Below, in pieces: positions 13,605 to 47,156 of a stretch of DNA of 64,000 nt. Position numbers and translations under genes: made by a program. The DNA lies in NCBI RefSeq assembly GCF_058153355.1, contig NZ_CM177019.1. One strand, given 5' to 3'. Below the pieces are notes generated by a model. The model worked only from the letters and a program-made list of their open reading frames with translations, had not been told where the DNA came from and did not search any database. Positions within the stretch are counted from its first letter, which is position 1; every line of letters begins with the position of its first letter.

Positions 13605-14243
13605 ATGCCCGGGCGCTTTGAACTAAAACCAACCCTGGAGAAAGTCTGGCACGCGCCGGACAATTTTCGCTTCATGGACCCGCTACCGCCGATGCATCGT
13701 CGGGGGATCATTATTGCCGCTATTGTATTGGTGGTCGGATTTCTACTCCCGTCTGATGATACGCCAAACGCGCCGGTGGTGACGCGTGAAGCACAGTTAG
13801 ATATTCAGTCGCAATCACAACCGCCGACAGAAGAACAGCTGCGGGCGCAATTAGTCACACCACAAAATGATCCTGATCAGGTGGCTCCGGTCGCTCCAGA
13901 ACCGATACAGGAAGGCCAACCGGAAGAGCAGCCGCAAACCTCGCAAGTGCAACCTTTCCAGCCAGATAGCGGAATTGACAATCAATGGCGCTCTTATCGT
14001 GTCGAACCCGGTAAAACAATGGCGCAGCTGTTCCGCGACCACGGACTGCCCGCTACCGATGTCTATGCAATGGCGCAGGTAGAAGGCGCGGATAAGCCAC
14101 TGAGTAATTTGCAAAATGGGCAGATGGTGAAAATCCGCCAGAACGCCAGCGGCGTGGTGACGGGCTTAACCATTGATACGGGAAATAATCAACAGGTCCT
14201 GTTTACCCGCCAGCCGGATGGCAGTTTTATTCGCGCGCGGTAG
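13605..14243 (+). CDS. ytfB: cell-division protein YtfB (OapA/LysM-like)
   Basis: Start trimmed to [10 protein letters not shown] (212 aa); one TM segment, Pro/Gln-rich linker, C-terminal OapA-like domain. Confidence 0.85.
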
Positions 14244-14874
14244 ATGAAGGGTCAACCAGAAGCCAGCTAAGGATCGTCTCTTTGATGACCTTACGCCTGG
14301 CTTCCAGTGCCTGCGGTGAAACCATACTGATGTGATAAACCAGGCCAAGCGTATGTTGGTTGATCAAATAATATCCTCCAAGAGCAGCAATATTAATATT
14401 CACCTGCAACGGGTCGATATCTGGCTTAAAAATATTGCGCCGTTTGCCTTCAGCTAATAATGACTCCATTAACTGTAAGTGTGCGTGGTTAATTTCTAAA
14501 AGGCGCTGTGATTTTGCATAATGCACCCCTTTACTCTGGTTTTCACTATGCACAATTTTTAAAAACCAGGGGTTAGCAATGTAATAATCCCAGGTGAAAT
14601 CGATAATTTTCTCAATGGCTTTTTGTGGCGGAAGACCTGAGAAATCAAGGGATTTTTCTTTTTGCCGAATATCATTCCAGGTATATTCCAGCACTTCGAT
14701 AAATAAATTTTCTTTATTACCAAAGTGATGATAAACCGTCTGTTTACTGCACTCCGCGGCCTTGACGATATTATCGACTCTGGCCCCTTCGTAACCATAT
14801 TCGGCAAATTCATTAACCGCACATAACAACAGCTTTTCCTTCAGGCTTTGTACGTTGCTGGTATCAAGATACAT
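14227..14874 (-). CDS. TetR-family transcriptional regulator, intact, at the K-12 ytfA position
   Basis: Start taken at MYLDTSNVQ (215 aa); TetR N-terminal HTH ([32 protein letters not shown]); divergent from the downstream operon; 3' end overlaps ytfB by 17 nt. Confidence 0.8.
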
Positions 14875-15085
14875 TCCGCTTCCCCACGTCTTCTTCGTGA
14901 TGACTATCTTAACCCGATTTGTTAGAAGCTCCACTAAAATGGCTAAAAACTCGCAATTTCATCGGGTTATCAAATGCTCTGTGATCATTATCGCATATCA
15001 ACCAACTAGATGGTTGATCTTTCTTGCCACACATTGCAAGCTAATCGTCACTTAAGGAAATAATATTCAAAAAGAGGGTTATTGT

Positions 15086-15877
15086 ATGAAGTCAACACGT
15101 CCTGTTGCTGTCATCACTGGAGCCGCACGTGGTATTGGAAAGGGCTGTGCACTGGAACTTGCGCGTGGCGGATTTAATCTGCTGATTAATGATCGTCCGG
15201 ATGCCGACAGCGTAGAAAAATTACATGCCACACAACAAGAATGTCTGGCGGAAGGCGTGGAAGTCATTTGCTTCCCTGCCGATGTCGGCGATCTCTCCTT
15301 GCATGAAGAGATGCTCGACGCGGCGCAAAACCAGTGGGGGCGTCTGGACTGCCTGCTCAATAACGCCGGGATTTCAGTGAAAAAACGCGGTGACCTCCTC
15401 GACCTCGAACCAGACAGCTTCGACCAAAACATTGCCATTAACACCCGTGCGCCGTTCTTCCTTGCTCAGGCATTCAGTAAGCGATTACTGGCACAGCCGA
15501 AACCGGAAGCAGAACTGCCGCACCGCTCGATTATTTTTGTCAGTTCCATAAACGCCATCATGCTGGCGATGAATCGCGGCGAATATACCATTGCCAAAAC
15601 TGCCGTCTCCGCCGCAGCTCGCCTGTTTGCCGCTCGCCTTTGCAATGAACAAATTGGCGTTTATGAAGTGCGCCCTGGCCTAATCAAAACCGATATGACC
15701 ATTCCGGCAACGGCTTATTACGACGAACTGATTGCTAAGGGGTTAGTGCCGTGGGGACGTTGGGGTTATCCGGCTGATATTGCCTCAACGGTCCGCGCGA
15801 TGGCGGAAGGCAAACTGATTTACACCTGTGGTCAGGCGGTCGCCATCGACGGCGGCTTAAGTATGCCGCGCTTCTGA
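15086..15877 (+). CDS. short-chain dehydrogenase/reductase (SDR)
   Basis: 263 aa; TGAARGIG cofactor motif, NNAG, catalytic YxxxK (YTIAK); AGAGGG RBS. Confidence 0.85.
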   Translation: MKSTRPVAVITGAARGIGKGCALELARGGFNLLINDRPDADSVEKLHATQQECLAEGVEVICFPADVGDLSLHEEMLDAAQNQWGRLDCLLNNAGISVKKRGDLLDLEPDSFDQNIAINTRAPFFLAQAFSKRLLAQPKPEAELPHRSIIFVSSINAIMLAMNRGEYTIAKTAVSAAARLFAARLCNEQIGVYEVRPGLIKTDMTIPATAYYDELIAKGLVPWGRWGYPADIASTVRAMAEGKLIYTCGQAVAIDGGLSMPRF

Positions 15878-15886
15878 GGCTGAATC

Positions 15887-16729
15887 ATGAGAGATCTGTT
15901 ACAACGCCCGGATTTATTCAGTATCAATACTGCGACACTGGGCTATAAAACACCGCTACCTGCCATTATTGATGCCTGCGCCGCACGCGGTATTGGCGCG
16001 ATTGCCCCCTGGCGCAGGGAGTTACAGGGTGAAGATCTCCAACAAATCGCCCGCCAGCTTGCTGCCAGTAACATGAGCGTTTCCGGTTTGTGCCGTAGCA
16101 CCTATTACACCGCGCCGACGCTGACGGAACGCAAACTGGCGATTGATGATAACCGCCGGGCGCTGGACGACGCCGCTGTACTGAACGCCGCCTGTTATAT
16201 GCAGGTGGTTGGCGGTCTGCCAATGGGAACAAAAGATCTGTACGAAGCGCGGGAACAGGTGAAACAAGGGATTCGCCAGTTGCTGCCACATTCGAAAGAT
16301 GTCGGCGTACCAATTGCGCTGGAGCCGCTACACCCGATGACCGCCGCCGATCGCTCTTGCCTGTGCACGTTACGTCAGGCGCTGGACTGGTGTGATGAAC
16401 TCGATCCCGATGGGGAGTTTGGCCTCGGCGTGGCGGTGGATGTTTATCACGTCTGGTGGGACCCGGATCTCGCCAGTCAGATCCTGCGTGCCGGAAAGCG
16501 CATCCTCGCGTTTCATGTTTCCGACTGGCTGGTGCCAACCACCGATTTAGTCAATGACCGGGGAATGCCGGGAGATGGCGTAATCAATATTCCGTCTATT
16601 CGTCGCCAGGTAGAAAATGCCGGATTTAACGGTGCTATTGAACTGGAAATATTCTCACCGTACTGGTGGCAAAAAGATATTAACAGCACACTGGATATTA
16701 GCGTCGATCGCATCGCGCATTATTGCTAA
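15887..16729 (+). CDS. sugar phosphate isomerase/epimerase-like TIM-barrel protein
   Basis: 280 aa; overall resemblance to xylose-isomerase-like TIM-barrel enzymes (IALEPLHP, AFHVSD); 9-nt gap to upstream gene. Confidence 0.6.
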   Translation: MRDLLQRPDLFSINTATLGYKTPLPAIIDACAARGIGAIAPWRRELQGEDLQQIARQLAASNMSVSGLCRSTYYTAPTLTERKLAIDDNRRALDDAAVLNAACYMQVVGGLPMGTKDLYEAREQVKQGIRQLLPHSKDVGVPIALEPLHPMTAADRSCLCTLRQALDWCDELDPDGEFGLGVAVDVYHVWWDPDLASQILRAGKRILAFHVSDWLVPTTDLVNDRGMPGDGVINIPSIRRQVENAGFNGAIELEIFSPYWWQKDINSTLDISVDRIAHYC

Positions 16730-16732
16730 GGA

Positions 16733-17515
16733 ATGATCATGAGTGACCAACCCGTTCTGTTCAGCAGAGCGGCGGCTTCCTGCCGCCTGACATTGAACCG
16801 TGAAGATAAATGTCATGCTATTAATGAAGAAATGATCGAATCTCTCGACCATTATTTAAATGAAATTGAAAACGACACCACATTACGATTAGTCGAATTA
16901 ACGGCAACCGGCGATAAATTCTTTTGTGCAGGCGGCGATATTAAATCGTGGTCAGCCTATTCGCCATTAGATATGGGCAGAAAATGGATTAAACGCGGCA
17001 ATGACGTTTTTAATCGCCTGCGCAACTTACCCCAATTAACCGTTGCGAATCTCAACGGTCATACCATCGGCGGCGGTATTGAACTTGCCTTGTGCTGTGA
17101 TATTCGTATTGCCCGCCCCGGCGCGAAATTCTCTAACCCGGAAGTGATGCTCGGCATGGTACCTGGCTGGATGGGCATTGAACGCGTGCTTAATCAGGTC
17201 GGTCCGGTGGTCGGTCGCCAGATGCTGATGCTGGGTAAACGCCTGACGGCGCAGGAAGCTCAGGCGGCGAATTTAATTGATGAAGTGGTAGAAAAAGAAC
17301 AGGTGGAAAGCTGGATGGCGAATCAGTTAGCGCAACTGGAAAAATGTGGTCCGGTAGCGCTGGCACATATTAAGCAACTGATTCTGGCGCTGGAAAATAA
17401 ACACGCCGATTACCCGCACCAGTTACTGGCTGGATTAATGTCCGCCACTCAGGATTGCCAGCAGGCGACGCGCGCATTTGCCGAAAAAGCCAGCGTGAGC
17501 TTCCATAATCAATAA
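16733..17515 (+). CDS. enoyl-CoA hydratase/isomerase (crotonase family)
   Basis: 260 aa; FFCAGGDIKSW and GHTIGGGIELALCCDIRIA crotonase-fold motifs. Confidence 0.8.
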   Translation: MIMSDQPVLFSRAAASCRLTLNREDKCHAINEEMIESLDHYLNEIENDTTLRLVELTATGDKFFCAGGDIKSWSAYSPLDMGRKWIKRGNDVFNRLRNLPQLTVANLNGHTIGGGIELALCCDIRIARPGAKFSNPEVMLGMVPGWMGIERVLNQVGPVVGRQMLMLGKRLTAQEAQAANLIDEVVEKEQVESWMANQLAQLEKCGPVALAHIKQLILALENKHADYPHQLLAGLMSATQDCQQATRAFAEKASVSFHNQ

Positions 17516-17524
17516 GGAAATTGT

Positions 17525-19066
17525 ATGCGTAAGATAACAACCGCCGAGACACTGGCGGCGCAAATTCAGGACGGCGCAACCATTGCCATTAGCGGTAATG
17601 GCGGTGGCATGGTGGAAGCGGACCATATTCTGGCTGCTATTGAAGCGCGTTTCCTGCAAACCGGACACCCGCGCGATCTGACATTAATCCACTCACTGGG
17701 CATTGGCGATCGCGACTGCAAAGGCACTAACCGCTTCGCTCATGCAGATATGCTCAAACGCATCATTGCCGGACATTTTACCTGGTCGCCCAAGATGCAG
17801 GATCTGGTGAAAAACAATGCTATTGAAGCCTACTGCTTCCCTGGTGGCGTAATTCAGGCACTGCTGCGGGAGATCGGTGCCGGACGTCCAGGGCTTTTTA
17901 CCCACGTTGGGCTGGGATCGTTTGTTGATCCGCGCAACGGCGGCGGTAAGTCGAACGCCAGCACCACTGAGGATCTGGTAGAACTGATTGAAATCGACGG
18001 TGAAACCAAACTTCGTTATCGCCCTTTCAAAGTGGACTACGCGATTTTGCGTGGCACTTATGCCGATCCGCGTGGCAACGTCAGCCTCGAAGAAGAGGCG
18101 ATTGATATGGATAGCTATTCCATGGCGCTGGCAGCACACAACAGCGGCGGCAAAGTGTTCGTACAGGTGCGCGATGTGCTGGAAGCTGGTGCCATTGAAC
18201 CACGCCGGGTCAAATTACCGGGCATTCTGGTTGATGGCATCGTTGAACACCGCGAACAACCGCAAACCTATCTTGGCGGTTACGACCTGACCATCAGCGG
18301 TCAGCATCGCCGTCTAAGTTCTAACGACGCTATTGAACTGGTTAGTCATCCGGTGCGCCGCCTGATTGCCCGTCGGGCAGCACGCGAACTGGTGGCTGGC
18401 GCTTCAACCAACTTTGGCTTTGGTATTCCGGGCGGTATTCCAGGAGTAGCGCTGCGCGAAGGCGTGCCTTATCAAAGTTTATGGCTGAGCGTAGAACAGG
18501 GCGTACATAACGGCATGATGCTGGATGATGCTCTGTTCGGCTGCGCCCGTAACGCCGATGCCATTATTCCATCACTCGATCAATTCGAATTCTACAGTGG
18601 CGGAGGGATCGATATCACCTTCCTCGGCATGGGAGAGATGGATCAGTACGGTAACGTCAACGTCTCCCATCTCAATGGCAATCTCATTGGCCCCGGCGGA
18701 TTTCTCGAAATTGCGCAAAACGCCCGTAAAGTGGTGTTCTGCGGCACGTTCGACGCCAAAGGTAGCAAGATTGATGTAACACCAGATGGCTTGCATATTG
18801 CCCAGTCAGGTCAAATCCCTAAACTGGTTACCCAGGTGGAAAAAATCACTTTTAGCGCCGCCTACGCACAGCAAAGCGGTCAGGAAGTGTTGTATATCAC
18901 TGAACGTGCAATATTCCAGTTAACGGCAGAAGGCGTTGAATTAATTGAAATCGCACCAGGTGTGGAGATTGAGCGCGACATTCTGCCATATATGGCTTTC
19001 CGTCCAATTATCAATCAGCCACGCCTGATGGAAAGTAGCCTGTTTACGCCGATGGAGGATGCATGA
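17525..19066 (+). CDS. family I CoA-transferase, fused A/B subunits (YdiF-like)
   Basis: 513 aa; two-domain CoA-transferase architecture; stop overlaps next start (ATGA). Confidence 0.7.
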   Translation: MRKITTAETLAAQIQDGATIAISGNGGGMVEADHILAAIEARFLQTGHPRDLTLIHSLGIGDRDCKGTNRFAHADMLKRIIAGHFTWSPKMQDLVKNNAIEAYCFPGGVIQALLREIGAGRPGLFTHVGLGSFVDPRNGGGKSNASTTEDLVELIEIDGETKLRYRPFKVDYAILRGTYADPRGNVSLEEEAIDMDSYSMALAAHNSGGKVFVQVRDVLEAGAIEPRRVKLPGILVDGIVEHREQPQTYLGGYDLTISGQHRRLSSNDAIELVSHPVRRLIARRAARELVAGASTNFGFGIPGGIPGVALREGVPYQSLWLSVEQGVHNGMMLDDALFGCARNADAIIPSLDQFEFYSGGGIDITFLGMGEMDQYGNVNVSHLNGNLIGPGGFLEIAQNARKVVFCGTFDAKGSKIDVTPDGLHIAQSGQIPKLVTQVEKITFSAAYAQQSGQEVLYITERAIFQLTAEGVELIEIAPGVEIERDILPYMAFRPIINQPRLMESSLFTPMEDA

Positions 19067-21135
19067 GTCAGCTTGATGACACCCTCCTTGATGCGCTGAC
19101 GCACGTCACTTTCCCGAAGGGTTTTGTGTCAGCAGAGCCAGCGTCAATTGTCACGGTTGAAGATGTCGATTACCCGATCTGGCAAGTTGATGCGCTAGTC
19201 GTTGGTAGCGGCGCGGCAGGGCTGCGCGCAGCGGTTGAACTTAAGCGCCGCCAGCAAAATGTGCTGATCGCCTCCGCCGGGTTATATATGGGGACATCGG
19301 CATGTTCTGGTTCCGATAAACAGACGCTGTTTACCGCCGCTACCGCGGGCAACGGCGATAACTTCGCCAAACTGGCGGAAGCACTGGCGAGCGGTGGGGC
19401 GATGGATCACGACACCGCTTATGTCGAAGCGGTAGGTTCTCTGCACACTCTTGGCGGGTTGCAATATCTTGGTCTGGAATTACCGGAAGATCGCTATGGC
19501 GCAATTCTTCGTTATCAAACCGACCATGACGAAGCCGGGCGAGCAACCTCGTGTGGGCCGCGTACTTCTCGCCTAATGGTGAAAGTATTGCTGGAGGAAG
19601 TGCAGCGTCTTGCCATACCACTACTGACCAGTGCAACGGTGATTAAGCTCCTGCATCAGCACGGAGAGAATGGCGAAGATCGCGTTGCGGGGGCTATTCT
19701 CGCAACCGGTTCCCGCGCCTATAACCCCTGGGGGCTGGCTATTGTGACGGCGCCCAATGTGGTACTGGCAACGGGCGGACCGGGCGAGCTTTATCGCGAC
19801 AGTGTTTATCCACATAAATGCTTCGGCTCGCTGGGACTGGCACTGGAAGAAGGTTTGACGCTAACCAATCTGACCGAAAGCCAGTTTGGTATAGGCACGC
19901 CGCGCAGCACGTTTCCGTGGAATTTGTCCGGCACCTATGTACAGGTGATCCCATATATCTATTCCGTGGATGCCGGGGGCAACGAGTATAACTTCCTCGC
20001 AGATTACTATCGCACCACCCAGGAGCTGGCTTCAAACATCTTCCGTAAAGGCTATCAGTGGCCGTTTCACGCCACACGAGTGATGGATTTTGGCTCCAGC
20101 TTGTTAGATATGGCAGTAGCGCAAGAGCAGCAATCAGGACGTCAGGTATTTATGGATTTCAATCGCAATCCTGAACCTGTGCCGGGTGACCTGCCGTTCT
20201 CATTAGATCGACTGGACGACGACGTTCGCGCGTATCTGGAAAATAACGACGCTCTGGCACCATCGCCCATCGAACGACTGCAACGAATGAATCCGCTGTC
20301 TATCTCGCTGTATAAGATGCACGGTTACGATCTCACCACGCAGCCATTGCAGTTTGCCATGAATAATCAGCATATAAATGGCGGCATTGAAGTGGATATC
20401 TGGGGGCAAACCTCCCTGCCCGGATGTTTCGCCGTGGGGGAAGTTGCTGGCACACACGGCGTCACTCGCCCTGGTGGTGCGGCATTGAATGCCGGGCAGG
20501 TTTTTGCTGTTCGTCTGGCACGTTTTATTGGTTGCACGCAAAAACGTAATATTGATGGAGATATAGCACAGCTGGTAGCTCCGGCACTGGCTTCTATAAG
20601 AGAGATCATTACTCAGGCGCACGATAACGGGACCGGGATGCCGTTGTCGGTTGTGAGGGAAAAAATTCAGGCACGAATGTCTGACTACGCGGGATTTATT
20701 TGCCATGCCGATAAAGTCCGACGCGCCACTCGTGATGCCCTGCTATTGAACGAATTTGTGCAACGGCATGGATTGGCAATCAAACATGTGGGTGAAGTTG
20801 CCGAGCTATTTATGTGGCGGCATATGGCGCTGACTTCTGCCGCGGTATTAACACAATTAACGCATTATATTGATGCTGGTGGTGGTAGCCGTGGGGCGCG
20901 TATGGTTATTGATCCACAAGGCAAATGCCTACCACAAACTCGTCGCGGCGCAAAAGAAGAATGGCGTTTTCGCTCTGAACTCGCTGAAGACAAAAATCAC
21001 AAATTAACAATTCAATATTCGCAAGGTTCTTTTATTACCGAAGTAAAGTCTTTACGTATGCAACCGTGTATTAACGGTATTTACTTTGAAAAAAACTGGC
21101 CAGACTTTTTAAAGGGAGACATTTACACACAGTAA
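19063..21135 (+). CDS. FAD-dependent oxidoreductase, fumarate reductase/succinate dehydrogenase flavoprotein-like
   Basis: 690 aa; N-terminal dinucleotide fold VVGSGAAGLRAAVEL; second FAD-contact motif GCFAVGEVAGTHG; long C-terminal extension. Confidence 0.7.
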   Translation: MSQLDDTLLDALTHVTFPKGFVSAEPASIVTVEDVDYPIWQVDALVVGSGAAGLRAAVELKRRQQNVLIASAGLYMGTSACSGSDKQTLFTAATAGNGDNFAKLAEALASGGAMDHDTAYVEAVGSLHTLGGLQYLGLELPEDRYGAILRYQTDHDEAGRATSCGPRTSRLMVKVLLEEVQRLAIPLLTSATVIKLLHQHGENGEDRVAGAILATGSRAYNPWGLAIVTAPNVVLATGGPGELYRDSVYPHKCFGSLGLALEEGLTLTNLTESQFGIGTPRSTFPWNLSGTYVQVIPYIYSVDAGGNEYNFLADYYRTTQELASNIFRKGYQWPFHATRVMDFGSSLLDMAVAQEQQSGRQVFMDFNRNPEPVPGDLPFSLDRLDDDVRAYLENNDALAPSPIERLQRMNPLSISLYKMHGYDLTTQPLQFAMNNQHINGGIEVDIWGQTSLPGCFAVGEVAGTHGVTRPGGAALNAGQVFAVRLARFIGCTQKRNIDGDIAQLVAPALASIREIITQAHDNGTGMPLSVVREKIQARMSDYAGFICHADKVRRATRDALLLNEFVQRHGLAIKHVGEVAELFMWRHMALTSAAVLTQLTHYIDAGGGSRGARMVIDPQGKCLPQTRRGAKEEWRFRSELAEDKNHKLTIQYSQGSFITEVKSLRMQPCINGIYFEKNWPDFLKGDIYTQ

Positions 21136-21227
21136 TTTTCAATATTTACTCTGTACCTGATTTTTATTGCCTATTACATGGAAATACCAACAACCAGGGT
21201 TTATTAATATAATTAAAAGGTTTAAAA

Positions 21228-22505
21228 ATGAATAAAATAAAGAATTATCGATGGCATATGATTGCCCTCGTATGCTTTATCACTGTAATCAATTATCTGG
21301 ACAGAACGGCGTTAGGTATTGCGGCTCCAACGATTATGGAGACAACCGGAATAACCAAAGAACAATATTCATGGATTGTCAGTGCATTCCAGTTGGCCTA
21401 TACATTGGGGCAACCGGTAATGGGCTTCTTTATTGATACCGTGGGTCTGAAGTTAAGTTTTGCGATATGTGCCGCAATCTGGGGCCTGGCGACAATGGGG
21501 CATGCCTTGACAGGAACATGGTCAGGTCTGGCATTTATGCGCGCCCTGATGGGTTTCAGCGAAGCATCGGCAATTCCTGCGGGTGTAAAAACCGCATCAA
21601 CATGGTTCCCGGCAAAAGAGCGTGGCGTGGCGACAGGTGTTTTCAATATGGGCACCTCACTCGGCGCGATGCTTGCTCCACCGTTGATTGCCTGGTGCAT
21701 TATGTTTCATAGCTGGCAATTTGCGTTTATTGTCTCAGGTAGCCTTGCTTTACTCGCGGCTTTATTTTGGTTCTTTTGTTATAAAGATCCAAAAGATGCT
21801 AAACGCCTTTCTGATGAAGAGCGCCACTATATTGAGTCTGGGCAAGAACAGCATCTTAAAACAGATAAGAAAGAAAAAACGTCAATCAAGCATATCCTCA
21901 GCCAACGTAATTTCTGGGGGATTGGCATCGCGCGTTTTCTCGCTGACCCGGCATGGGGAACCATTAACTTCTGGGTACCGATTTTCTTCGTCGAAACGCT
22001 GCATTTTAGCCTGAAAGAAATTGCCATGTTCGTCTGGCTGCCTTTCCTGCTGGGCGATCTCGGCTGTTTAGCCAGTGGTTTTGTCGCGAAGTTCTTCCAC
22101 GATCGCGGCGTGAGTTTAATTAACTCACGAAGAATTACCTTCACTATTGCAGCCGTCATTATGATGACGATTGGTCTGGTGAGTATTGTCGAAAATCCCT
22201 ACATCGCCGTATTACTGATTAGCATTGGCGCATTCTCGCATCAATGTCTTTCTACTGTAGCAGCAACTCTGGGCGGTGACCTATTCAAAAAAGACGAAGT
22301 AGCTACCGCAGTGGGTATGGCAGGAGCCTGTGCGTGGAGCGGTCAGTTGATTTTCAACCTGTTCATCGGGGCATTCGTTCACATTATCGGCTTCGCGCCG
22401 TTCTTTATTGCCCTGGCTTTCTTTGACATTATTGGTGCTATTGCGTTGTGGACGCTTATCAAAGTTAAAGATGAAGAACCACAAGTACAGTTAGCTACCC
22501 ACTAA
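21228..22505 (+). CDS. MFS transporter, anion:cation symporter type (hexuronate/galactonate-like)
   Basis: 425 aa, about 12 TM; N-terminal motifs (NYLDRTALGIAAP) typical of ExuT/DgoT/GudP-like acid-sugar permeases. Confidence 0.7.
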   Translation: MNKIKNYRWHMIALVCFITVINYLDRTALGIAAPTIMETTGITKEQYSWIVSAFQLAYTLGQPVMGFFIDTVGLKLSFAICAAIWGLATMGHALTGTWSGLAFMRALMGFSEASAIPAGVKTASTWFPAKERGVATGVFNMGTSLGAMLAPPLIAWCIMFHSWQFAFIVSGSLALLAALFWFFCYKDPKDAKRLSDEERHYIESGQEQHLKTDKKEKTSIKHILSQRNFWGIGIARFLADPAWGTINFWVPIFFVETLHFSLKEIAMFVWLPFLLGDLGCLASGFVAKFFHDRGVSLINSRRITFTIAAVIMMTIGLVSIVENPYIAVLLISIGAFSHQCLSTVAATLGGDLFKKDEVATAVGMAGACAWSGQLIFNLFIGAFVHIIGFAPFFIALAFFDIIGAIALWTLIKVKDEEPQVQLATH

Positions 22506-22774
22506 TTATTTTAAATAAAAACGCTATAATTGAGGTTATGGCGTTTTTAAAGAAGCTTGAGTTATCGAACCTCGCTTACCAACGCGTTGTCAGTCATCTC
22601 CCCCCTCCCTGGTGCATCGTTATATCCGTGATGAGCGATTTTTGATATTAATATCTTTCACCATCCGCTATTTTCACCACTTCAGAAAACAAACTTATTT
22701 TTATTAATATCAATTCTTTTTCTTTGAACATTCAACTGCGATATTTGTAAAAATATTAAACAGGCAACAATAAA

Positions 22775-37797: not shown

Positions 37798-38436
37798 TTA
37801 GCCTCCCCAGTGCCCACGGGCGCTGGAAGAACGACCATAGCCGCCGCGAGAAACAGTTGACGCTTTTCTGGTGGTAAAGCCGCCCGAGGAGTAAGACTCT
37901 TTTTTGCCAGAACCGGAGCGCCAGGAGTAATCACCGGAAGTATTGCGCCAGACGGGGCGGGAAGCAAATGAGGATCCACCGCTGTTATAAACGAACGGCT
38001 CATCGCGATCTTTACGGATAACCCGGCTTAATAAAAATCCAGAAATGACCGGGATCCAACTCTGTTCAACATTGTCGTAGTAGCAATTTTCGTACTTAGA
38101 CTGACAATTCTGCTGAGTCATATTCTTCGGAACATCGGCATAAAATGCCGCTTTGGCATTGTTCCAGCCATGAGCACAGATATCTGAATTATTACCGTCA
38201 TCAATACAATCCTGCACTGTCGAGTAAAACGTTCCGTCACCGTCGTTATCGACATCACCACTATCGCCACAACCTTTCAATACAAAAAAAGCTGCACCGC
38301 CCATTAGCGCCAACGTTAAGTATTTTTGTGCGTAGCGATTGCGTCGCGGCTCAAAAGGATTATTAGGTCTTCCAATGCGACTGATCGCTCCGTGACCAAT
38401 TTTACTGTTATTTCTTGATTTGCGTTTTCTGGCCAT
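37798..38436 (-). CDS. yjfM: uncharacterized protein YjfM
   Basis: 212 aa; one TM near N-terminus, Gly/Ser-rich C-terminus. Confidence 0.85.
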   Translation of the reverse strand: MARKRKSRNNSKIGHGAISRIGRPNNPFEPRRNRYAQKYLTLALMGGAAFFVLKGCGDSGDVDNDGDGTFYSTVQDCIDDGNNSDICAHGWNNAKAAFYADVPKNMTQQNCQSKYENCYYDNVEQSWIPVISGFLLSRVIRKDRDEPFVYNSGGSSFASRPVWRNTSGDYSWRSGSGKKESYSSGGFTTRKASTVSRGGYGRSSSARGHWGG

Positions 38437-38445
38437 GATCGTCCA

Positions 38446-38844
38446 TTACCATGTCATACAAGCTGCGTTAAAAATACCGCCAGCCAGCGCGGCGGTTCCC
38501 ATAAACATTCCTGCTGCGGTATTGTGATTAATAATTTTTTCGCTTAATGCTGGCATATAAAGTCTGACGCCAGCAAAAACGAGTAACTGAATCACCAGTG
38601 CGATCCCGCCCCAGGCAAAATAATCCGGAATACTCACCGCATTGATTGCCGCACTAGATAATGGGATCACGTAACCCAACAATGTACCACTGAACGCCAG
38701 TGCCGCCGCGGTATTATTGTTTTTAATTAACTGCCATTCGTTGTGCGGTGTAATTTTGGAGTAGATAAACAGAAAAATAATCACCATAGCCACGCCAATA
38801 AAAAAATAGGCGCTAAAGGCAAGAAGTGAATCCAGTATATGCAT
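38446..38844 (-). CDS. yjfL: small membrane protein YjfL
   Basis: 132 aa, 4 TM. Confidence 0.85.
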   Translation of the reverse strand: MHILDSLLAFSAYFFIGVAMVIIFLFIYSKITPHNEWQLIKNNNTAAALAFSGTLLGYVIPLSSAAINAVSIPDYFAWGGIALVIQLLVFAGVRLYMPALSEKIINHNTAAGMFMGTAALAGGIFNAACMTW

Positions 38845-38861
38845 CGTAAACGTCCTTGTAA

Positions 38862-39521
38862 TTAACCAATAATATGAAGTGATGTCAGTGGGATATCAAC
38901 ACCCAGTGCGCGCGAAAATAACCACTCCGGCTCGCCGAGATCGTTAAAAGATTCCTCACCATTTAACAGCAAATATTCACAGGTATCTTCGGTCACCTGC
39001 CGTTCATAGCCCATGGTAAAATTATGCACTTCCCATTTGGCGTGGTTTTGATTTTCAACTTTTTCCAGCATATAGACGGGTTCGATATTCCCCGGTTCTT
39101 CGCTGTTAAAAAATCGCTGCCAGCGTTTTTCCTGCCAGTTTAAAGTCATTGCCCCCATCGCTTTGGCGTTGATCGCTTCGCGCCAGTGGCTCTCTTTGCT
39201 GATACCGTAGCTCTCTTCATAGACAAAGAGTTTTATATCATCAATGTCATCAATATCTTCGCCGCCGGTGGTATTGATTTGCAGAAATTCATCGCCCGAA
39301 GTGTAGTAGCGGAAAATCTGACTACCGCCGCCCAGATCGATGTGGCTGACAGCGGCTACCGTAAATTCTTCACCCGGCAGCGCAATCAGCAATTCATCTT
39401 CCAGCAAACAAAACGCTAACGTGTCGAGCGTAAAGCCGCTATTGAGATGAAGTCCCAGCGGGCCACGTGCGATTACAGGTTTATCATCCTTACCAAACAG
39501 ATGCTTGAAAAAACTTGTCAT
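38862..39521 (-). CDS. yjfK: uncharacterized protein YjfK
   Basis: 219 aa; start ATG overlaps upstream channel-gene stop (ATGA). Confidence 0.85.
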   Translation of the reverse strand: MTSFFKHLFGKDDKPVIARGPLGLHLNSGFTLDTLAFCLLEDELLIALPGEEFTVAAVSHIDLGGGSQIFRYYTSGDEFLQINTTGGEDIDDIDDIKLFVYEESYGISKESHWREAINAKAMGAMTLNWQEKRWQRFFNSEEPGNIEPVYMLEKVENQNHAKWEVHNFTMGYERQVTEDTCEYLLLNGEESFNDLGEPEWLFSRALGVDIPLTSLHIIG

Positions 39522-40588
39522 ATGCTTCCCTCAATGTCCTGCCATGCCACTTCTTCAGCCAAAATACGGTTATTGCCAATAAGATGCAGCCACATACCGC
39601 CTTTAACTTCCGTTGCAATGACTGGATTCAGTTCCATTCCCCTACCATTTTTACAGCTGCTTATTCCCAGGACGGTGGCATCATGATGAAGTTTCATATA
39701 ATGCATCAATGCGCCATAACGCATTGAGGTAACCCGTTCAGGAATCGGTAAAACAAACCCCGTATCCCCCAGCATTGGATTCATAATCGATGCCACTGAT
39801 TGAGATGAACCGGGATCTTGTATTGAACGGGAAAGTTGTTCTGCTGAAATATTTCGCACTATTTCAATACGTTGACAATGAACCTCTAATAAACGAGCGT
39901 AGCGTTCATCTTCCAGATAAGCGACGATATGGCATCTTTCAGGAATAAAATCCGCCAGGGATAGTGCGGTCGTGAACGTCTGCTCATCAGTTTGCGAAAA
40001 GATGATGACACTTTGGCAATTTGCCAGTCCCATGCGGGTATGTTCATGCGGATCATTAAAATTACTAATACGAATGAAATCGACCCAATTATTTCCAGGC
40101 ATCGGATGTTGAATATCATCCCGCTCACACAAAAGTACCCGGCCAAATGCTCTTCGGGCATCAAACAACAATAATGAAATCATCTTTTCAGTCTGATGCC
40201 CGCGCCATCCAATGACCAGCATATGGTTGCGCAAATTGCTGTAGTCGCCCATTCCCGTCATTCCTTTCGCCAATATGTCTTGCACTAATGCAATGACTTT
40301 TCCCATTAAAGCGCCAAATAAACCAACACTCACAGGAATTTGCCAGAGCGCTGTGAACAGACGTCCCCCCACCGTTTGGGGTGTGATATCACCAAACCCC
40401 AGCGTTGATCCCACAACCGAGCAGTAATAAATAAAATTACTCAGTTGACCTACCAACGCCTCTTCATGCAACGCAGTTAACACCAGATAACAAAACAGAT
40501 ACTGTCCTGTAAATAATCCAGTCAATGCCGGCCAGGTAAGCCTGGAAAGGTGACGTCGGCAGGTTTTAATGATCCAGGAGAAGAACAT
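39518..40588 (-). CDS. 2-TM P-loop potassium-channel-like protein with C-terminal RCK-like domain
   Basis: 356 aa; TM1 (LTGLFTGQYLFCYLVLTAL), pore helix plus filter-like TLGFGD, TM2 (LFTALWQIPVSVGLFGALMG), then Rossmann-like HMLVIGWRGH...; start overlaps yjfJ stop (TAATG), stop overlaps yjfK start (ATGA). Confidence 0.75.
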   Translation of the reverse strand: MFFSWIIKTCRRHLSRLTWPALTGLFTGQYLFCYLVLTALHEEALVGQLSNFIYYCSVVGSTLGFGDITPQTVGGRLFTALWQIPVSVGLFGALMGKVIALVQDILAKGMTGMGDYSNLRNHMLVIGWRGHQTEKMISLLLFDARRAFGRVLLCERDDIQHPMPGNNWVDFIRISNFNDPHEHTRMGLANCQSVIIFSQTDEQTFTTALSLADFIPERCHIVAYLEDERYARLLEVHCQRIEIVRNISAEQLSRSIQDPGSSQSVASIMNPMLGDTGFVLPIPERVTSMRYGALMHYMKLHHDATVLGISSCKNGRGMELNPVIATEVKGGMWLHLIGNNRILAEEVAWQDIEGSI

Positions 40589-41286
40589 TACTCGCCCTGT
40601 TGGCGTTGCAGTCTTGCTAATACATCCTGGGCGCTACTTTTGTTGCTACCGCCAATTCCGGCTTCCGCCAGTTTTTCATCAAGATCGCGACCATCTGCCA
40701 CTTTTTCCAGCTGTGCGGCAGCATCCAGGCGAGCTTGACGTTCGGCCTGACGCGTTTGCAGACGCTTTAAGGATTCTGCCGCTGTCGAAACGCTGGAAGA
40801 TGCGCCAACAGTAGAGGTCGTTACGGCCTGTTGTGCACGCTGCATGGCTTCAGTAGCTTTAACGACTTCCATTTGTTGCTCAAATTGAGCGATACTCTGT
40901 GCTGTCGCTGTAACCGCTTTTTCCACACCATCGCGAGAGACTTCCAGATTCGACAACACTTGCTCTTCAGCGGTAATGACATTCTCAAGACGGGCGATTT
41001 CTTCAGCAACTTCGTTAATCAACGACGGATTAACATTCTTGCTTAACGCTTCCAGCGCGCGAGCTTCCAGACTGGCTTTACGCTCACGTAAATCTTTCAG
41101 TTTATCGTTGCTCAATTTCACTCTTGCCAGTAGATCGACACGTGATTTACCGGCCTTATCCAGTTCTGCTTTGGCATCGCGTATATGCTGTTCAAGCATT
41201 CTAACGCCCTGTGCTTCTTCAATGGATTCTTCCGCTTGCGAGATCACCGATTTACCCAGCGTAAATAAAGTTTTTAAAATTCCCAT
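40588..41286 (-). CDS. yjfJ: PspA/IM30-family protein
   Basis: 232 aa, coiled-coil. Confidence 0.88.
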   Translation of the reverse strand: MGILKTLFTLGKSVISQAEESIEEAQGVRMLEQHIRDAKAELDKAGKSRVDLLARVKLSNDKLKDLRERKASLEARALEALSKNVNPSLINEVAEEIARLENVITAEEQVLSNLEVSRDGVEKAVTATAQSIAQFEQQMEVVKATEAMQRAQQAVTTSTVGASSSVSTAAESLKRLQTRQAERQARLDAAAQLEKVADGRDLDEKLAEAGIGGSNKSSAQDVLARLQRQQGE

Positions 41287-41304
41287 AAATACCTGTCCTT
41301 GTAA

Positions 41305-41706
41305 TTAGTGTGAATATTCTTCTGTAATTTCAGCAAGATCCAAAGCGTTATCTACCAGCGTGGTTATTTCCAGCAGGATATCTTCAAGAGAAGATTTAAG
41401 CGATAACGCCCCGAAAACAATGTAATACTCTTCATGTTGCACGCTGGAGATCCCTACCGATGACAACGGCATCATCTTCTGATTTCTTAATAAGAAGGTA
41501 TTAAATTCATCTGGATTGCTGATACTACTTACCGGACAAATAAAGGTTTCGATAATCATTTGGCGGGAAGTAAATAGAATATTGATTTGCAAATCGCCAT
41601 AATCATTCATTTTAATAATTAATGCGTTCTCGCCATTTGTTACATCAATATTTTGTTCAGGTACAGTTTGCAGCGCCGTCGCCAGCGCCAACGGATTCCA
41701 TGTCAT
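41305..41706 (-). CDS. yjfI: uncharacterized protein YjfI
   Basis: 133 aa, first gene of the operon. Confidence 0.85.
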   Translation of the reverse strand: MTWNPLALATALQTVPEQNIDVTNGENALIIKMNDYGDLQINILFTSRQMIIETFICPVSSISNPDEFNTFLLRNQKMMPLSSVGISSVQHEEYYIVFGALSLKSSLEDILLEITTLVDNALDLAEITEEYSH

Positions 41707-41832
41707 ATATTATTCCATATAAATTAAGTTTAAATATTAATAAAATGAATATTTGTAGTACGTAATTATCTTACCAGCTATAGACAAAAAAAAACCATCC
41801 AAATCTGGATGGCTTTTCATAATTCCGAGAAA

Positions 41833-42564
41833 TTAGCTACGCTGGCGTACCGCTTCAAATAAGCAAATGCCTGTCGCCACAGAAACGTTCAGCGAAGAAA
41901 CACTTCCTGCCATTGGGATGCTGATCAACTCATCGCAATGTTCACGGGTCAGGCGACGCATGCCTTCACCTTCTGCGCCCATAACCAATGCCAGCCGTCC
42001 GGTCATTTTGCTCTGATAGAGCGTATGATCCGCCTCTCCTGCCGTACCGACGATCCAAATATTCTCTTCCTGCAACATACGCATGGTGCGCGCCAGGTTA
42101 GTCACCCGAATCAGCGGAACGCTTTCTGCCGCGCCGCAGGCCACTTTTTTCGCCGTGGCGTTGAGCTGTGCGGAGCGATCTTTCGGCACAATCACCGCAT
42201 GAACGCCAGCGGCGTCCGCGCTGCGCAGGCACGCGCCGAGGTTGTGCGGATCGGTTACACCGTCGAGGATCAGCAGGAACGGCTGATCGAGCGAAGCGAG
42301 CAGATCCGGCAGATCATTTTCCTGATACTGACGTCCAGGCTTCACACGGGCGATAATGCCCTGATGCACGGCACCGTCGCTTTTCTCGTCGAGATATTGG
42401 CGGTTTGCCAGCTGGATAACCACGCCCTGGGACTCAAGGGCGTGAATCAGCGGCAACAGACGTTTATCTTCACGGCCTTTTAAAATAAAGACTTCCTGAA
42501 AACGTTCAGGGGCGCGCTCCAGCAGGGCCTGCACTGCGTGGATGCCGTAAATCATTTCGCTCAT
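41833..42564 (-). CDS. rlmB: 23S rRNA (guanosine-2'-O)-methyltransferase
   Basis: 243 aa SpoU/TrmH fold. Confidence 0.93.
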
Positions 42565-42588
42565 TAATGTACTCGTTGTTTACGTTTT

Positions 42589-42687
42589 GCCTGATGCGCT
42601 ACGCTTATCAGGCCTACATGATCCCTGCAATGTATTGAATTTGCGTGATTATGTAGGCCGGATAAGGCGTTCACGCCGCATCCGGCA
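42589..42687. repeat. BIME (two inverted REP elements)
   Basis: gcctgatgcgctacgcttatcaggcctac ... gtaggccggataaggcgttcacgccgcatccggca. Confidence 0.75.
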
Positions 42688-42744
42688 TGAACAAAGCGCA
42701 TTTTGTCAGCAATCTGACCCTCTTCTGTTTGAAGAGGGTAATGA

Positions 42745-45186
42745 TCACTCTGCCACTTTTTTCTTCGCCGCACGCTTCGCTTTGGTCGCTGCGGCTATTT
42801 TCTGCGTTTTCGCCGATGGCTTTTTCGCTTTTCTCGCGTCTTTCTTCGCCGCTTTCGGCTTCGTTTTTTTCTCGCCGCGGAAAGCGCTGTCTGGCTCAAA
42901 GTTTACCTTTTTACCAACCTGACGACGCTTGCCGCCTTTTTTGCCTGCATCGCCTTTTTTCGCTTTCTCGCGAGCGGTTTTACCGACGTTGCGCGGTGCG
43001 CGTTCGCTGGAGATCAGGCTAAAGTCGATTTTGCGCTCGTCCATATTAACCGCTTCGACGCGAACTTCCACGCGATCGCCCAAGCGATAAGTCTGGCCGC
43101 TGGATTCACCCATCAGGCGTTGTCCCACCTGGTCAAAGCGATAGTAGTCATTGTCCAGCGAAGAGACGTGGACCAGACCATCGATGAACAAGTCATCCAG
43201 GCGAACAAAGAAGCCAAAGCCAGTGACACTGGAAATCACGCCTTTAAAGACGTTACCTACCTGGTCGAGCATGAAGTCACACTTCAGCCAGTCAGCCACA
43301 TCGCGCGTTGCTTCGTCGGCACGACGTTCCGCCATCGAACAGTGCTGACCCAGTTGCAGCATTTCTTCCATCGAATAATGGTAGCCGCCGGTTTCAGTGG
43401 TGTTGCCCTGATGCCCTTGCTCTTTCGCCAGCAGATACTTAATGGCGCGGTGTAGCGTCAGATCAGGATAACGACGAATCGGCGAAGTAAAGTGCGCATA
43501 GGACTGCAATGCCAGACCGAAGTGACCGCGGTTTTCCGGATCGTAAATCGCTTGTTTCATCGAGCGCAACAGCATGGTTTGCAGCATTTCTGCGTCAGGA
43601 CGGTCAGCAACCGATTCCAGCAGTTCCGCGTAGTCACGCGGTTCCGGCTTGTTACCGCCAGGCAATTCCAGCCCCAGTTCCGCCAGCACTGAACGGAAAG
43701 AGGTTATCGCTTCGGTGCTCGGCTTGTCGTGAATACGGAACAGTGCCGGTTCTTTGGCCTTCTCAACGAAACGCGCCGCCGAGATATTCGCCAGAATCAT
43801 GCACTCTTCAATTAACTTGTGTGCGTCGTTACGCTGGGTCTGTTCGATACGCTCAATACGGCGTTCAGCGTTGAAAATAAACTTCGCTTCTTCGCTCTCA
43901 AATGAGATCCCGCCGCGTTCTTCACGGGCTTTATCCAGCACTTTATAGAGGTTATGCAGCTCTTCGAGGTGCTTAACCAGCGGGGAGTACTGCTCGCGCA
44001 GATCCTGATCGCCCTGCAGAATATGCCAGACTTTGGTGTAGGTCAGACGAGCGTGAGAGCTCATCACCGCTTCATAGAATTTGTAGCCCGTCAGGCGACC
44101 TTTCGACGAAATGGTCATCTCACACACCATACACAGGCGGTCTACCTGCGGGTTGAGCGAGCACAGGCCGTTAGAGAGCACTTCCGGCAGCATCGGGATA
44201 ACCTGCGAAGGGAAGTACACCGACGTACCACGGTTACGCGCTTCTCTGTCCAGCGGTGTTGGCGGACGCACATAGTAGCTGACATCGGCAATTGCGACCC
44301 ACAAACGCCAGCCGCCGCCGCGTTTTTTCTCGCAGTAAACTGCATCGTCAAAGTCACGGGCGTCTTCGCCATCAATGGTGACCAGCGGTAAATCGCGCAG
44401 ATCGACACGGCCAGCTTTCGCCTCTTCCGGTACTTCTTCTTTCAGCCCGGCAACCTGTTGCTCAACAGCCTGCGGCCAGATGTACGGAATTTCATGGGTA
44501 CGCAGGGCGATATCAACCGCCATGCCAGTGCCCATATTATCGCCCAGCACTTCGACGATTTTACCCACCGCTTTGGTACGGCGAGTCGGGCGTTGGGTCA
44601 GTTCAACCACCACCACAAAGCCCATCCGCGCGCCCATGATCTGATCGGGCGGGATTAAGATATCGAAGCTCAAACGACTGTCGTCAGGAACCACAAAGCC
44701 GACACCCGCTTCGGTAAAGTAGCGACCAACAATCTGGCTGGTTTTTGGTACCAGTACGCGGACAATACGCGCTTCACGGCGGCCTTTACGGTCAGCGCCC
44801 AGCGGCTGTGCCAGCACCTGATCGCCATGAATGCATGTTTTCATCTGCTCGCTGGAGAGATACAAATCATCTTTACGCCCTTCAACCCGCAGAAAGCCGT
44901 AGCCATCACGGTGGCCAATAACGGTACCTTTCACCAGGTCGAGGCGTTCCGGCAGCGCATAGCACTGACGGCGAGTGAAGACCAGTTGACCATCGCGCTC
45001 CATCGCGCGCAGGCGGCGACGCAGGCCTTCAAGCTGCTCTTCGCCTTCAATGTGCAGTTCTACCGCCAGCTCATCACGGCTGGCCGGTTTTTCACGTTTG
45101 GTTAAATGTTCGAGGATAAATTCCCGACTAGGGATGGGATTCGCGTATTTTTCAGCTTCGCGTTCCTGGAAAGGATCTTGTGACAT
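42745..45186 (-). CDS. rnr: ribonuclease R
   Basis: 813 aa from [17 protein letters not shown] catalytic domain, S1 domain, Lys/Ala-rich basic C-terminal tail. Confidence 0.93.
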
Positions 45187-45224
45187 CTCGGTTCCTCCGT
45201 TGTCATCTCTGATGAAGATTTTCG

Positions 45225-45650
45225 TCACTCCACCAGCAATAATTTATAAAGCGGTTGATTCTCTTCAACCAAATCGGCAAGCGTGTAGTTATCCAGTTCC
45301 GTAAGAAAACTTTGCACGGCCTTAGAAAGTGCCTGTTTCAACCGACAGGCAGGTGTAATGTGGCAAAACTCACTGCTGCAATTCACCAGCGATAAAGGTT
45401 CCAGCTCGCGCACCACATCACCAATACGTATCGCACTCGCCGGTTTCCCCAGGCGAATGCCGCCATTTTTTCCACGAACAGCAGTCACGTAGCCGGCACG
45501 ACTAAGTTGATTGATTATTTTGACCATATGATTACGGGAGACGCCGTAGACGTCAGTCACTTCAGAAATACTGGTCATCCGCCCTTCTGGCAATGACGCC
45601 ATGTAGATCAGCGCACGTAATCCGTAATCAGTGAAACTCGTTAACTGCAC
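45225..45650 (-). CDS. nsrR: NO-sensing Rrf2-family repressor
   Basis: 141 aa; N-terminal HTH, three C-terminal Cys. Confidence 0.93.
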
Positions 45651-45854
45651 ATCAACCTCAAAAGGGAAAGCGGGAAAAAATACATTTATATTGATGATAA
45701 ACCAGCCACAAGCTGTGTCGCTAATTTATTTCAGTTCGGGGAAGGAAAAAAGCGAGGATTTAACACTGTGTCGGATAGCGTAATGGCTTACCCGACACAG
45801 CAATGTATCACACTGTTAGCCCGGCAGGCAAAATATCTGCCAGGCGTACCAGAA

Positions 45855-47156
<1,302 letters not shown>

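Follow-up and report, generated by a model that had tools for sequence, protein, structure and literature searches.

The question raised by this locus is what chemistry, and on what substrate, is carried out by two overlapping genes that encode a coenzyme A (CoA)-transferase and a fumarate-reductase-like flavoprotein at positions 17525-21135 of a 64,000-nucleotide stretch of Escherichia coli chromosome (NCBI RefSeq assembly GCF_058153355.1, contig NZ_CM177019.1; the whole stretch is called the window). An earlier reading of the letters alone (the sequence-only reading) had taken the pair, together with an adjacent crotonase, for a CoA-dependent module of enoate reduction or oxidation, analogous in logic to the carnitine system CaiABD. 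The most informative result of the present analysis is that the flavoprotein belongs to an orphan, widespread FrdA/NadB-like subfamily embedded in sugar-acid catabolism. We propose, with a probability of roughly 0.4, that the operon degrades an imported hexuronate-like sugar acid by an uncharacterised pathway. The pair and its junction are as follows:

17525-19066, plus strand: CoA-transferase open reading frame (ORF), 513 aa, fused alpha/beta protein of family I, YdiF/Pct-like, fourth cistron of the operon (Pfam CoA_trans)
19063-21135, plus strand: ORF of a stand-alone FrdA/SdhA/NadB-like flavin adenine dinucleotide (FAD) flavoprotein, 690 aa, fifth cistron (Pfam FAD_binding_2, residues 43-475)
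19054-19066, plus strand: Shine-Dalgarno sequence GGAGG (19054-19058) and ATGA stop/start overlap (19063-19066), read from the sequence

The coordinates of both ORFs and of their ATGA overlap had been given exactly: the junction reads GATGGAGGATGCATGAGT, in which the flavoprotein ATG occupies 19063-19065 and the CoA-transferase TGA 19064-19066. The two FAD motifs picked out before are also present, VVGSGAAGLRAAVEL at residues 46-60 and GCFAVGEVAGTHG at residues 454-466, and the crotonase does adjoin the pair, since the gene directly upstream matches Pfam ECH_1.

By profile and by structure model, the flavoprotein is a full-length, stand-alone homologue in the lineage of complex-II flavoproteins and NadB. 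An AlphaFold (AF2) model computed from 44 homologues reaches a predicted local distance difference test score (pLDDT) of 92.9 and a predicted template-modelling score (pTM) of 0.94, and its top Foldseek matches in the PDB are E. coli FrdA and mitochondrial and bacterial SdhA (about 670 aligned columns, 17% identity, E ~1e-28), followed by adenosine phosphosulfate/phosphoadenosine phosphosulfate (APS/PAPS) reductase and NadB. In hhalign, residues 38-659 align to FrdA 2-571 with the C-terminal SRG motif included, which leaves about 37 N-terminal and about 30 C-terminal residues as extras; the GxGxxG motif lies at residues 48-53 and the C-terminal helical domain at about residues 476-660. What had been described as an unusually long C-terminal extension is this normal helical domain of FrdA/SdhA. 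Pfam found no domain in residues 476-690, and the extension is only apparent because the FAD_binding_2 model stops short of the FrdA/SdhA C-terminal domain; an extra C-terminal domain is ruled out by hhalign and Foldseek.

Every NCBIfam match of the flavoprotein falls far below its curated cutoff: TfrA scores 125 bits (cutoff 718), the NadB models 100-104 bits (cutoffs 453-639; TIGR00551, 100 versus 453), the SdhA/FrdA model TIGR01812 79 bits (cutoff 567) and the flavocytochrome c model TIGR01813 40 bits (cutoff 285). The protein is assigned to the FAD enzymes of the fumarate-reductase superfamily, as the sequence-only reading had it, but the soluble Fcc3 and urocanate-reductase types named there are not its nearest relatives, as TfrA, NadB and SdhA/FrdA all score higher; the classification did not bring up a different family with an unrelated known function. 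Neither a gene for a FrdB/SdhB-like iron-sulphur (Fe-S) subunit nor one for a membrane anchor lies in the operon or its flanks, no Fe-S, haem, FMN_bind or old yellow enzyme (OYE) partner is encoded nearby, and the flavoprotein has no additional Pfam domain. Its subfamily comprises 413 clusters at E<1e-30 among 50%-identity representatives, most of them 640-690 aa long with full-length matches. These results point to a soluble protein with non-covalent FAD from a distinct, widespread and uncharacterised subfamily.

The active site sets this subfamily apart. Compared with FrdA/SdhA (E. coli quinol:fumarate reductase, 1KF6 and 5VPN), the flavoprotein shares the fold of all domains, the GxGxxG motif, the C-terminal SRG and one catalytic pair: FrdA H355 and R390 correspond in hhalign to its H437 and R469, which are invariant across 44 family members. 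It differs in its 17% identity, in having no FrdB-like partner or anchor, and in most of the remaining catalytic positions. FrdA His44, which carries the covalent 8-alpha-histidyl FAD, falls in an alignment gap where the family consensus is GTSxNxGSDKQT and holds no His. H232 is aligned with the invariant G276, T234 with G278, E245 with V295, R248 with a gap and R287 with S345/S346 (hhalign), so that among H232, T234, E245, R248, R287, H355 and R390 only the H355/R390 equivalents are kept. NadB and TfrA give the best profile matches (hhalign probability 99.4%) and are likewise soluble and stand-alone with non-covalent FAD; NadB H244 and R290, which we take to be the counterparts of FrdA H232 and R287, fall at positions that are G276 and S345/S346 in the flavoprotein, and the gene context is catabolic, not that of NAD biosynthesis.

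Three motifs (I-III) have been described for the FAD_binding_2 reductases (bioRxiv 10.1101/2022.01.20.477176). Of the Motif I residues, three in number, the flavoprotein has two, those equivalent to His504 and Arg544; Motifs II and III are absent. The same two residues are shared by Shewanella Fcc3, UrdA, the Klebsiella NADH:fumarate reductase (FRD) and the Vibrio harveyi NADH:acrylate reductase (ARD), all members of the same superfamily. In contrast to these reductases, from which it stands on a more distant branch, the E. coli flavoprotein has no Motifs II-III and no haem, FMN_bind or OYE domain; an OYE-like domain is present in both FRD and ARD (bioRxiv 10.1101/2022.01.20.477176). The subfamily has invariants of its own, mostly polar or aromatic, namely GSDKQT (83-88), Y151/T153/D154, W286/N287/S289/Q294 and K329/Y331/W333, and these may form a pocket for a polar substrate.

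We took 80 homologous flavoprotein loci from named genomes, clustered their neighbouring genes and annotated the recurrent ones. The commonest neighbour is a short-chain dehydrogenase/reductase (SDR), with 34 members at 32 of the 80 loci, and TIM-barrel homologues of the operon's own (38-72% identity) stand near the flavoprotein in Brenneria, Pseudescherichia vulneris, Lentisphaeria and Opitutia. Two patterns occur among the loci at 50-60% identity. The first, in Enterobacterales (Pseudescherichia, Phytobacter, Mangrovibacter), Lentisphaeria and Opitutia, combines a TetR or XRE regulator, an SDR, a GFO/IDH/MocA (GFO) dehydrogenase, a TIM barrel, a transporter and the flavoprotein; the second, in Brenneria, has only TetR, SDR, TIM barrel, flavoprotein and a major facilitator superfamily (MFS) transporter. 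The set conserved in alpha-proteobacteria consists of an aldehyde dehydrogenase, a sugar-type ATP-binding cassette (ABC) transporter, two GMC oxidoreductases, a Dabb protein, LacI, GFO, the flavoprotein and a kinase; this GFO is levoglucosan-dehydrogenase-like (308 bits), the kinase is KdgK-like (258 bits), and a 2-keto-3-deoxy-6-phosphogluconate (KDPG) aldolase is sometimes found. Below 50% identity (Planctomycetota, Lentisphaerota, Firmicutes and others) the loci typically hold an OYE, an SDR, a KDPG aldolase, the flavoprotein and a kinase. Judged by this company, the flavoprotein family is at home in carbohydrate and sugar-acid catabolism whose last steps fall to a 2-keto-3-deoxy-acid kinase and an aldolase. 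The OYE (Oxidored_FMN) is fused to the flavoprotein or adjacent to it at L062, L069, L075, L080 and L082, and a metagenomic protein of 1084 aa (P0145) is an OYE::flavoprotein fusion, which suggests reduction driven by NAD(P)H in distant relatives; the E. coli protein is without such a partner.

A family-I CoA-transferase and a crotonase stand near the flavoprotein at only about 8 of the 80 loci: those of the E. coli/Klebsiella/Salmonella type, two in Rhodobacterales, and one each in Devosia, a betaproteobacterium and a Desulfobacterales metagenome-assembled genome (MAG). The order in the two Rhodobacterales operons is GFO, flavoprotein, kinase, CoA-transferase, crotonase, aldehyde dehydrogenase. 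In the window, crotonase and CoA-transferase occupy the place of the GFO dehydrogenase, with the order SDR-TIM-crotonase-CoA-transferase-flavoprotein-MFS versus SDR-GFO-TIM-MFS-flavoprotein in related enterobacteria. We read the two CoA enzymes as an addition made in Enterobacteriaceae.

Clues to the substrate come from the uptake systems. The transporters of the enterobacterial operons are all of organic-anion types: an anion:cation symporter (ACS)-family MFS protein in the window, a different MFS protein in Klebsiella and Salmonella, and a tripartite ATP-independent periplasmic (TRAP) transporter in a sister E. coli allele. For the MFS protein of the window, the classification goes no further than the anion-symporter subfamily. 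The binding protein of the sister-allele TRAP system, WP_000695886.1, matches 14 structures of DctP-family binding proteins with 180-246 bits, and for several of these glucuronate or galacturonate is documented as a ligand. Glucuronate is the ligand of 4X8R and galacturonate that of 4N8Y (PMC11668362); 4N91 takes glucuronate, 4MHF takes either of the two, and the glucuronate binder STM3169 was modelled on 4N15 (PMC7660916). By alignment, the Arg/Arg/Asn triad described for glucuronate binders is kept (GARSFY, KVRVQPS, AEN), and by sequence the protein resembles the hexuronate binders of TRAP transporters such as Salmonella STM3169 (PMC7660916). The alpha-proteobacterial clusters import a neutral compound and encode a choline-dehydrogenase-like GMC enzyme and an aldehyde dehydrogenase; these two might convert a primary alcohol to a carboxylate and in this way yield the acid that enterobacteria take up as such. 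Anion transporters, the likeness of the binding protein and the kept carboxylate clamp together lead us to a hexuronate-like sugar acid as the substrate.

The remaining members of the operon and its regulator are:

14227-14934, minus strand: TetR-family regulator (ytfA), divergent (Pfam TetR_N and TetR_C_29; annotated TetR/AcrR in E. coli EC42405)
14997-15018, no strand: perfect 8+8 palindrome ATCAACCA-ACTAGA-TGGTTGAT in the TetR/SDR intergenic region, found as an inverted repeat; candidate TetR operator
15086-15877, plus strand: SDR, first cistron (Pfam adh_short_C2)
15887-16729, plus strand: xylose-isomerase-like TIM barrel of the sugar phosphate isomerase/epimerase family, second cistron (Pfam AP_endonuc_2)
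16733-17515, plus strand: crotonase/enoyl-CoA hydratase, third cistron (Pfam ECH_1; RefSeq start 16739)
21228-22505, plus strand: MFS transporter of the anion:cation symporter (D-galactonate-transporter) subfamily, sixth cistron (Pfam MFS_1; NCBIfam TIGR00893, 315 bits)

The six cistrons follow one another with gaps of 9, 3, 9, -4 and 92 nt. The RefSeq form of the regulator has 215 aa and starts about 60 nt inside the ORF given above. The full palindrome ATCAACCAACTAGATGGTTGAT is identical in the TetR/SDR intergenic regions of Klebsiella and Salmonella, and repeats of the related form TCAAC..GTTGA are found in the clusters of Pseudescherichia vulneris and Brenneria, including clusters without CoA enzymes; it is likely, from this conservation, to be a TetR operator. 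With the divergent regulator gene and this palindrome, the gene pair would belong to a substrate-inducible catabolic operon under TetR control.

For the SDR, NCBIfam PRK12745 is matched above its cutoff (420 bits), the KduD models reach only about 117 bits (cutoff 339), and the YxxxK and NNAG motifs are present. The TIM barrel has its best PDB matches in the uncharacterised Sinorhizobium meliloti SMc04130 (3ju2) and in 3qc0, at 291 bits each. Both catalytic Glu positions of the crotonase are present (GGGIELAL, NPEV), and fold and residues mark it as a crotonase-type enoyl-CoA hydratase; the best PDB match is a 3-hydroxypropionyl-CoA dehydratase (5zai), and no equivalog cutoff was reached. The CoA-transferase scores 387 bits against E. 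coli YdiF (2ahu) over residues 6-508, and the Glu aligned to YdiF position 333, which we take to be the catalytic glutamate, is conserved within SVEQG; by these matches it is a family-I enzyme of the YdiF/propionate CoA-transferase type with its catalytic Glu kept.

As a model, in which the substrate class, the reaction, its direction and the role given to each enzyme are all proposed, the sequence of events may run as follows. The substrate or an intermediate would release TetR, and the acid would enter via the MFS (or TRAP) transporter. The flavoprotein would bind the free carboxylate of the sugar acid through the His437/Arg469 clamp and perform flavin-dependent chemistry at the carbon or carbons next to it, whether dehydrogenation, ene-reduction or a hydration-type reaction. 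SDR and TIM barrel might then provide keto-reduction, isomerisation or elimination, after which a 2-keto-3-deoxy acid would pass to the housekeeping KdgK and Eda. Two roles are conceivable for the CoA-transferase and crotonase. They might serve a thioester-assisted beta-elimination or hydration with recycling of CoA, in the logic of CaiB/CaiD, a purely conjectural role that is attractive because a GFO dehydrogenase stands in the same place elsewhere and both strategies would acidify a C-H bond so that a beta-leaving group departs. Alternatively, they might dispose of a short-chain acid by-product, as the best match of the crotonase is a 3-hydroxypropionyl-CoA dehydratase and the transferase is YdiF/Pct-like. 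A more specific version, a new route for a uronic-acid-like sugar acid, is a long shot in our estimation: a complex-II-type flavoprotein would act on the free carboxylate, and in Enterobacteriaceae the CoA-transferase and crotonase would dehydrate the sugar acid as its CoA thioester, with this thioester-assisted 4,5-elimination replacing a dehydratase, a lyase or an NAD-dependent oxidation-elimination. If true, it would define the function of a flavoenzyme subfamily that spans E. coli to Planctomycetota.

The likeness to known hexuronate catabolism (ExuT-UxaC-UxuAB; KduI-KduD-KdgK-Eda) is partial. Shared features are the anion MFS or TRAP transporter, an SDR with weak similarity to KduD, an isomerase-type TIM barrel and, in related clusters, the KdgK-like kinase and KDPG aldolase. 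No homologue of UxaC, UxuA/B, UxaA/B or KduI was found in the operon, where the KduD similarity of the SDR stays far under the model cutoff, and the known uronate routes have no counterpart to the FrdA-like flavoprotein and the CoA enzymes.

Several points weigh against the sugar-acid reading. E. coli already has ExuT, UxaC and UxuAB for glucuronate and galacturonate; the operon must therefore either serve another substrate or be redundant with them, and that substrate may be a different uronate or a derivative. A route from uronate to 2-keto-3-deoxygluconate (KDG) gives the flavoprotein no necessary redox role. The active-site assignments in the capping domain are drawn from an alignment of 17-22% identity, which makes functional replacement of the lost residues by others possible. 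Literature searches gave no function for any member of the flavoprotein subfamily or any close TIM-barrel or SDR homologue. Lastly, CoA enzymes (CoA-transferase, crotonase, acyl-CoA dehydrogenase, MaoC, electron-transferring flavoprotein (ETF)) recur beside the flavoprotein in several unrelated lineages, which leaves room for a CoA-linked substrate.

The CoA-linked alternative is that of the sequence-only reading: the transferase would activate a hydroxy or unsaturated acid, the crotonase would hydrate or dehydrate it, and the flavoprotein, made in fixed ratio and perhaps complexed, would reduce or desaturate the enoyl-CoA or the released enoate. In the carnitine system CaiB is a family-III CoA-transferase, CaiA an acyl-CoA dehydrogenase and CaiD a crotonase. 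The logic may be shared, with a CoA-recycling transferase, a crotonase acting as hydratase or dehydratase and a flavoprotein acting on a C=C bond. The operon, however, has a family-I transferase and an FrdA-like flavoprotein whose clamp is one for free carboxylates, so that only the crotonase component matches. Part of this alternative stands, as the crotonase is adjacent, the catalytic Glu of the transferase and both Glu of the crotonase are intact, and the two enzymes may be an addition made in Enterobacteriaceae. Their occurrence at about 8 of 80 loci exceeds the roughly 1 expected by chance (a rough estimate made without calculation), acyl-CoA dehydrogenase and MaoC accompany them at the betaproteobacterium and Desulfobacterales MAG loci, with ETF at the former, and the OYE fusions and neighbours suggest ene-reductase activity driven by NAD(P)H in distant relatives. 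The conserved partners of the family are nevertheless sugar-acid enzymes, and most members have no CoA enzymes nearby, among them the 57-59% identical proteins of Brenneria, Pseudescherichia and Phytobacter. Moreover, in every characterised relative the His/Arg clamp holds a free carboxylate, and the alignment shows no equivalent of the proton-donor Arg that all characterised enoate reductases have. On balance we regard this alternative as unlikely.

The gene junction bears on the same alternative. Both the ATGA overlap and the GGAGG are kept in other E. coli, Klebsiella oxytoca and Salmonella, that is, in three genera, which speaks for linked expression. Among the same-strand neighbour pairs of the window, overlaps of 4 nt are found at 3 of 45 and overlaps of 1 nt at 3 of 45 more, and in Rhodobacterales the family member overlaps the gene of the KdgK-like kinase instead, also by ATGA. 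Since such overlaps are commonplace in the window and the partner is a kinase gene in Rhodobacterales, co-expression is supported and a fixed complex is not. The CoA-transferase/flavoprotein overlap is ordinary operon compaction. Of the stoichiometric co-expression claimed before, co-transcription of the two genes is supported and translational coupling is probable, but a stoichiometric complex does not follow when 6 of 45 window pairs overlap likewise. The two proteins have also diverged at different rates, with 78% identity to Klebsiella for the flavoprotein versus 90% for the CoA-transferase, which counts against this alternative.

An E. coli ORF of 1078 aa (P0009) carries a CoA_trans domain followed by a full FAD_binding_2 domain. 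We considered it as Rosetta-stone evidence for the pair and found it uninformative, as it is represented by only 11 sequences. It is about 125 residues shorter than CoA-transferase and flavoprotein summed (1203 aa), and for this reason probably arose by deletion and not as a designed fusion. A single ORF of 1043 aa (P0028), likewise with a CoA_trans domain and then a full flavoprotein, occurs in some E. coli strains.

A hydroaromatic or alicyclic acid (quinate-, shikimate- or cyclohexanecarboxylate-like) would offer another use for the same set of genes: the SDR would oxidise a ring hydroxyl, the TIM barrel would be a dehydratase like dehydroshikimate dehydratase, the flavoprotein would reduce or desaturate the ring enoate, and the CoA enzymes would act on the ring carboxyl-CoA. 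Xylose-isomerase-like TIM barrels include 3-dehydroshikimate dehydratases, and shikimate is an alpha,beta-unsaturated carboxylate; to our knowledge, the enzymes by which gut bacteria reduce shikimate to cyclohexanecarboxylate are not yet known. The MFS protein of the P. vulneris type has its best score with the aromatic-acid/H+ symporter model (147 bits), and the Brenneria transporter resembles MFS proteins of the aromatic-acid:H+ symporter type, a likeness judged by looking at the sequence and not by a family-library score. Against this, neither PDB nor NCBIfam gave the TIM barrel a significant match to a dehydroshikimate dehydratase, the likeness of the sister-allele TRAP binding protein is to hexuronate binders, and the gene context is dominated by KdgK-like kinase, KDPG aldolase, sugar ABC transporters, LacI and the GMC/GFO sugar oxidoreductases. 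We consider such a substrate improbable. The flavoprotein might also serve as a terminal reductase, in the manner of fumarate, urocanate or acrylate reductases, with electrons from anaerobic respiration or fermentation passed to an unsaturated acid that the rest of the operon supplies. Its FAD_binding_2 superfamily membership and the NAD(P)H-oxidising OYE modules often fused or adjacent to relatives below 50% identity could suggest this, but it is very unlikely for an E. coli protein without an OYE, FMN_bind, haem or Fe-S partner and without Motifs II and III of the known reductases, encoded in what resembles a carbon-catabolic cluster with its own uptake system.

Two published gene clusters were compared and set aside. 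The acyl-CoA deoxyribonate cluster of Klebsiella michiganensis is a different gene set, with CoA-synthetase, hydroxyacyl-CoA dehydrogenase, thiolase and glycerate kinase (Price et al., 2019), and the L-threonate 3-dehydrogenase cluster (JBC 2026) is unrelated to the operon. Schemes based on 1,5-anhydro-sugars, glycosyl-glycerates, 3-hydroxypropionate/acrylate and inositol-type compounds were considered, and none is put forward. Our literature searches found no publication on the operon or the flavoprotein subfamily, and the flavoprotein and TIM-barrel homologues carry only generic names.

The window reads cycA-fklB-ytfB ... yjfZ-rplI-ula along the E. coli chromosome, and the operon sits between ytfB and yjfZ. 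At this site K-12 has only yjfZ, a 402-bp ytfA pseudogene and ytfB, the operon having been lost. In the form seen in the window it is present in 1660 of 5426 complete E. coli genomes (~31%), and about 1500 further complete genomes (roughly 28%) match only as far as position 20903. In E. coli SX4 (L089/L090), the one genome of the latter type examined, a TRAP transporter (DctQ, DctM, DctP) replaces the MFS protein, and the flavoprotein is intact (693 aa) with a divergent C-terminal tail. The MFS or the TRAP form is thus present in about 58% of complete E. coli genomes, with the TRAP form read in one genome. The Klebsiella oxytoca group and some Salmonella strains have the operon at the same locus with an MFS protein that is only 51% identical. 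The 3' end of the operon (20904-22505) is a site of cassette swapping, with a third transporter in Klebsiella/Salmonella.

The ratio of nonsynonymous to synonymous substitution rates (dN/dS) is 0.03-0.07 for SDR, TIM barrel, crotonase and CoA-transferase versus both Klebsiella and Salmonella, and for the flavoprotein versus Salmonella only; synonymous sites were saturated in the remaining gene comparisons. For the genes and comparisons with an estimate, the operon is under strong purifying selection. It is functional and anciently resident, has repeatedly been lost, and has had its transporter end swapped between lineages. The flavoprotein is 77-78% identical to its Klebsiella/Salmonella orthologues (L086/L087) versus 87-94% for SDR, TIM barrel, crotonase and CoA-transferase, a faster divergence than that of its operon partners.

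The operon allele of the window (15000-22600) is rare: the best E. coli record is 97.8% identical, and 40 records fall in the 95-99% band versus 3130 in the 90-95% band. The core segment at 40000-46000 (rnr-rlmB region) is 95-99% identical to nearly all genomes. The lower identity bands of the operon suggest a divergent or recombinant allele at this locus. A 207-aa TIM-barrel protein (P0309-P0322), present in many E. coli and Shigella genomes, is 72% identical to the operon TIM barrel over 64% of its length; it is either a divergent allele that has been truncated or a paralogue encoded at another place. Segments of low G+C content are found at 1-2000 (0.385) and 38001-42000 (~0.445), versus a window average of ~0.51.

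Absent from K-12, the operon escaped classical genetics. It is a well-delimited orphan pathway rather than a demonstrated novelty. Once its substrate is named, a large branch of the succinate dehydrogenase/fumarate reductase superfamily that is still an orphan would have a function, and a new sugar-acid pathway could come to light that matters in gut colonisation and in the turnover of polysaccharides in sea and soil.

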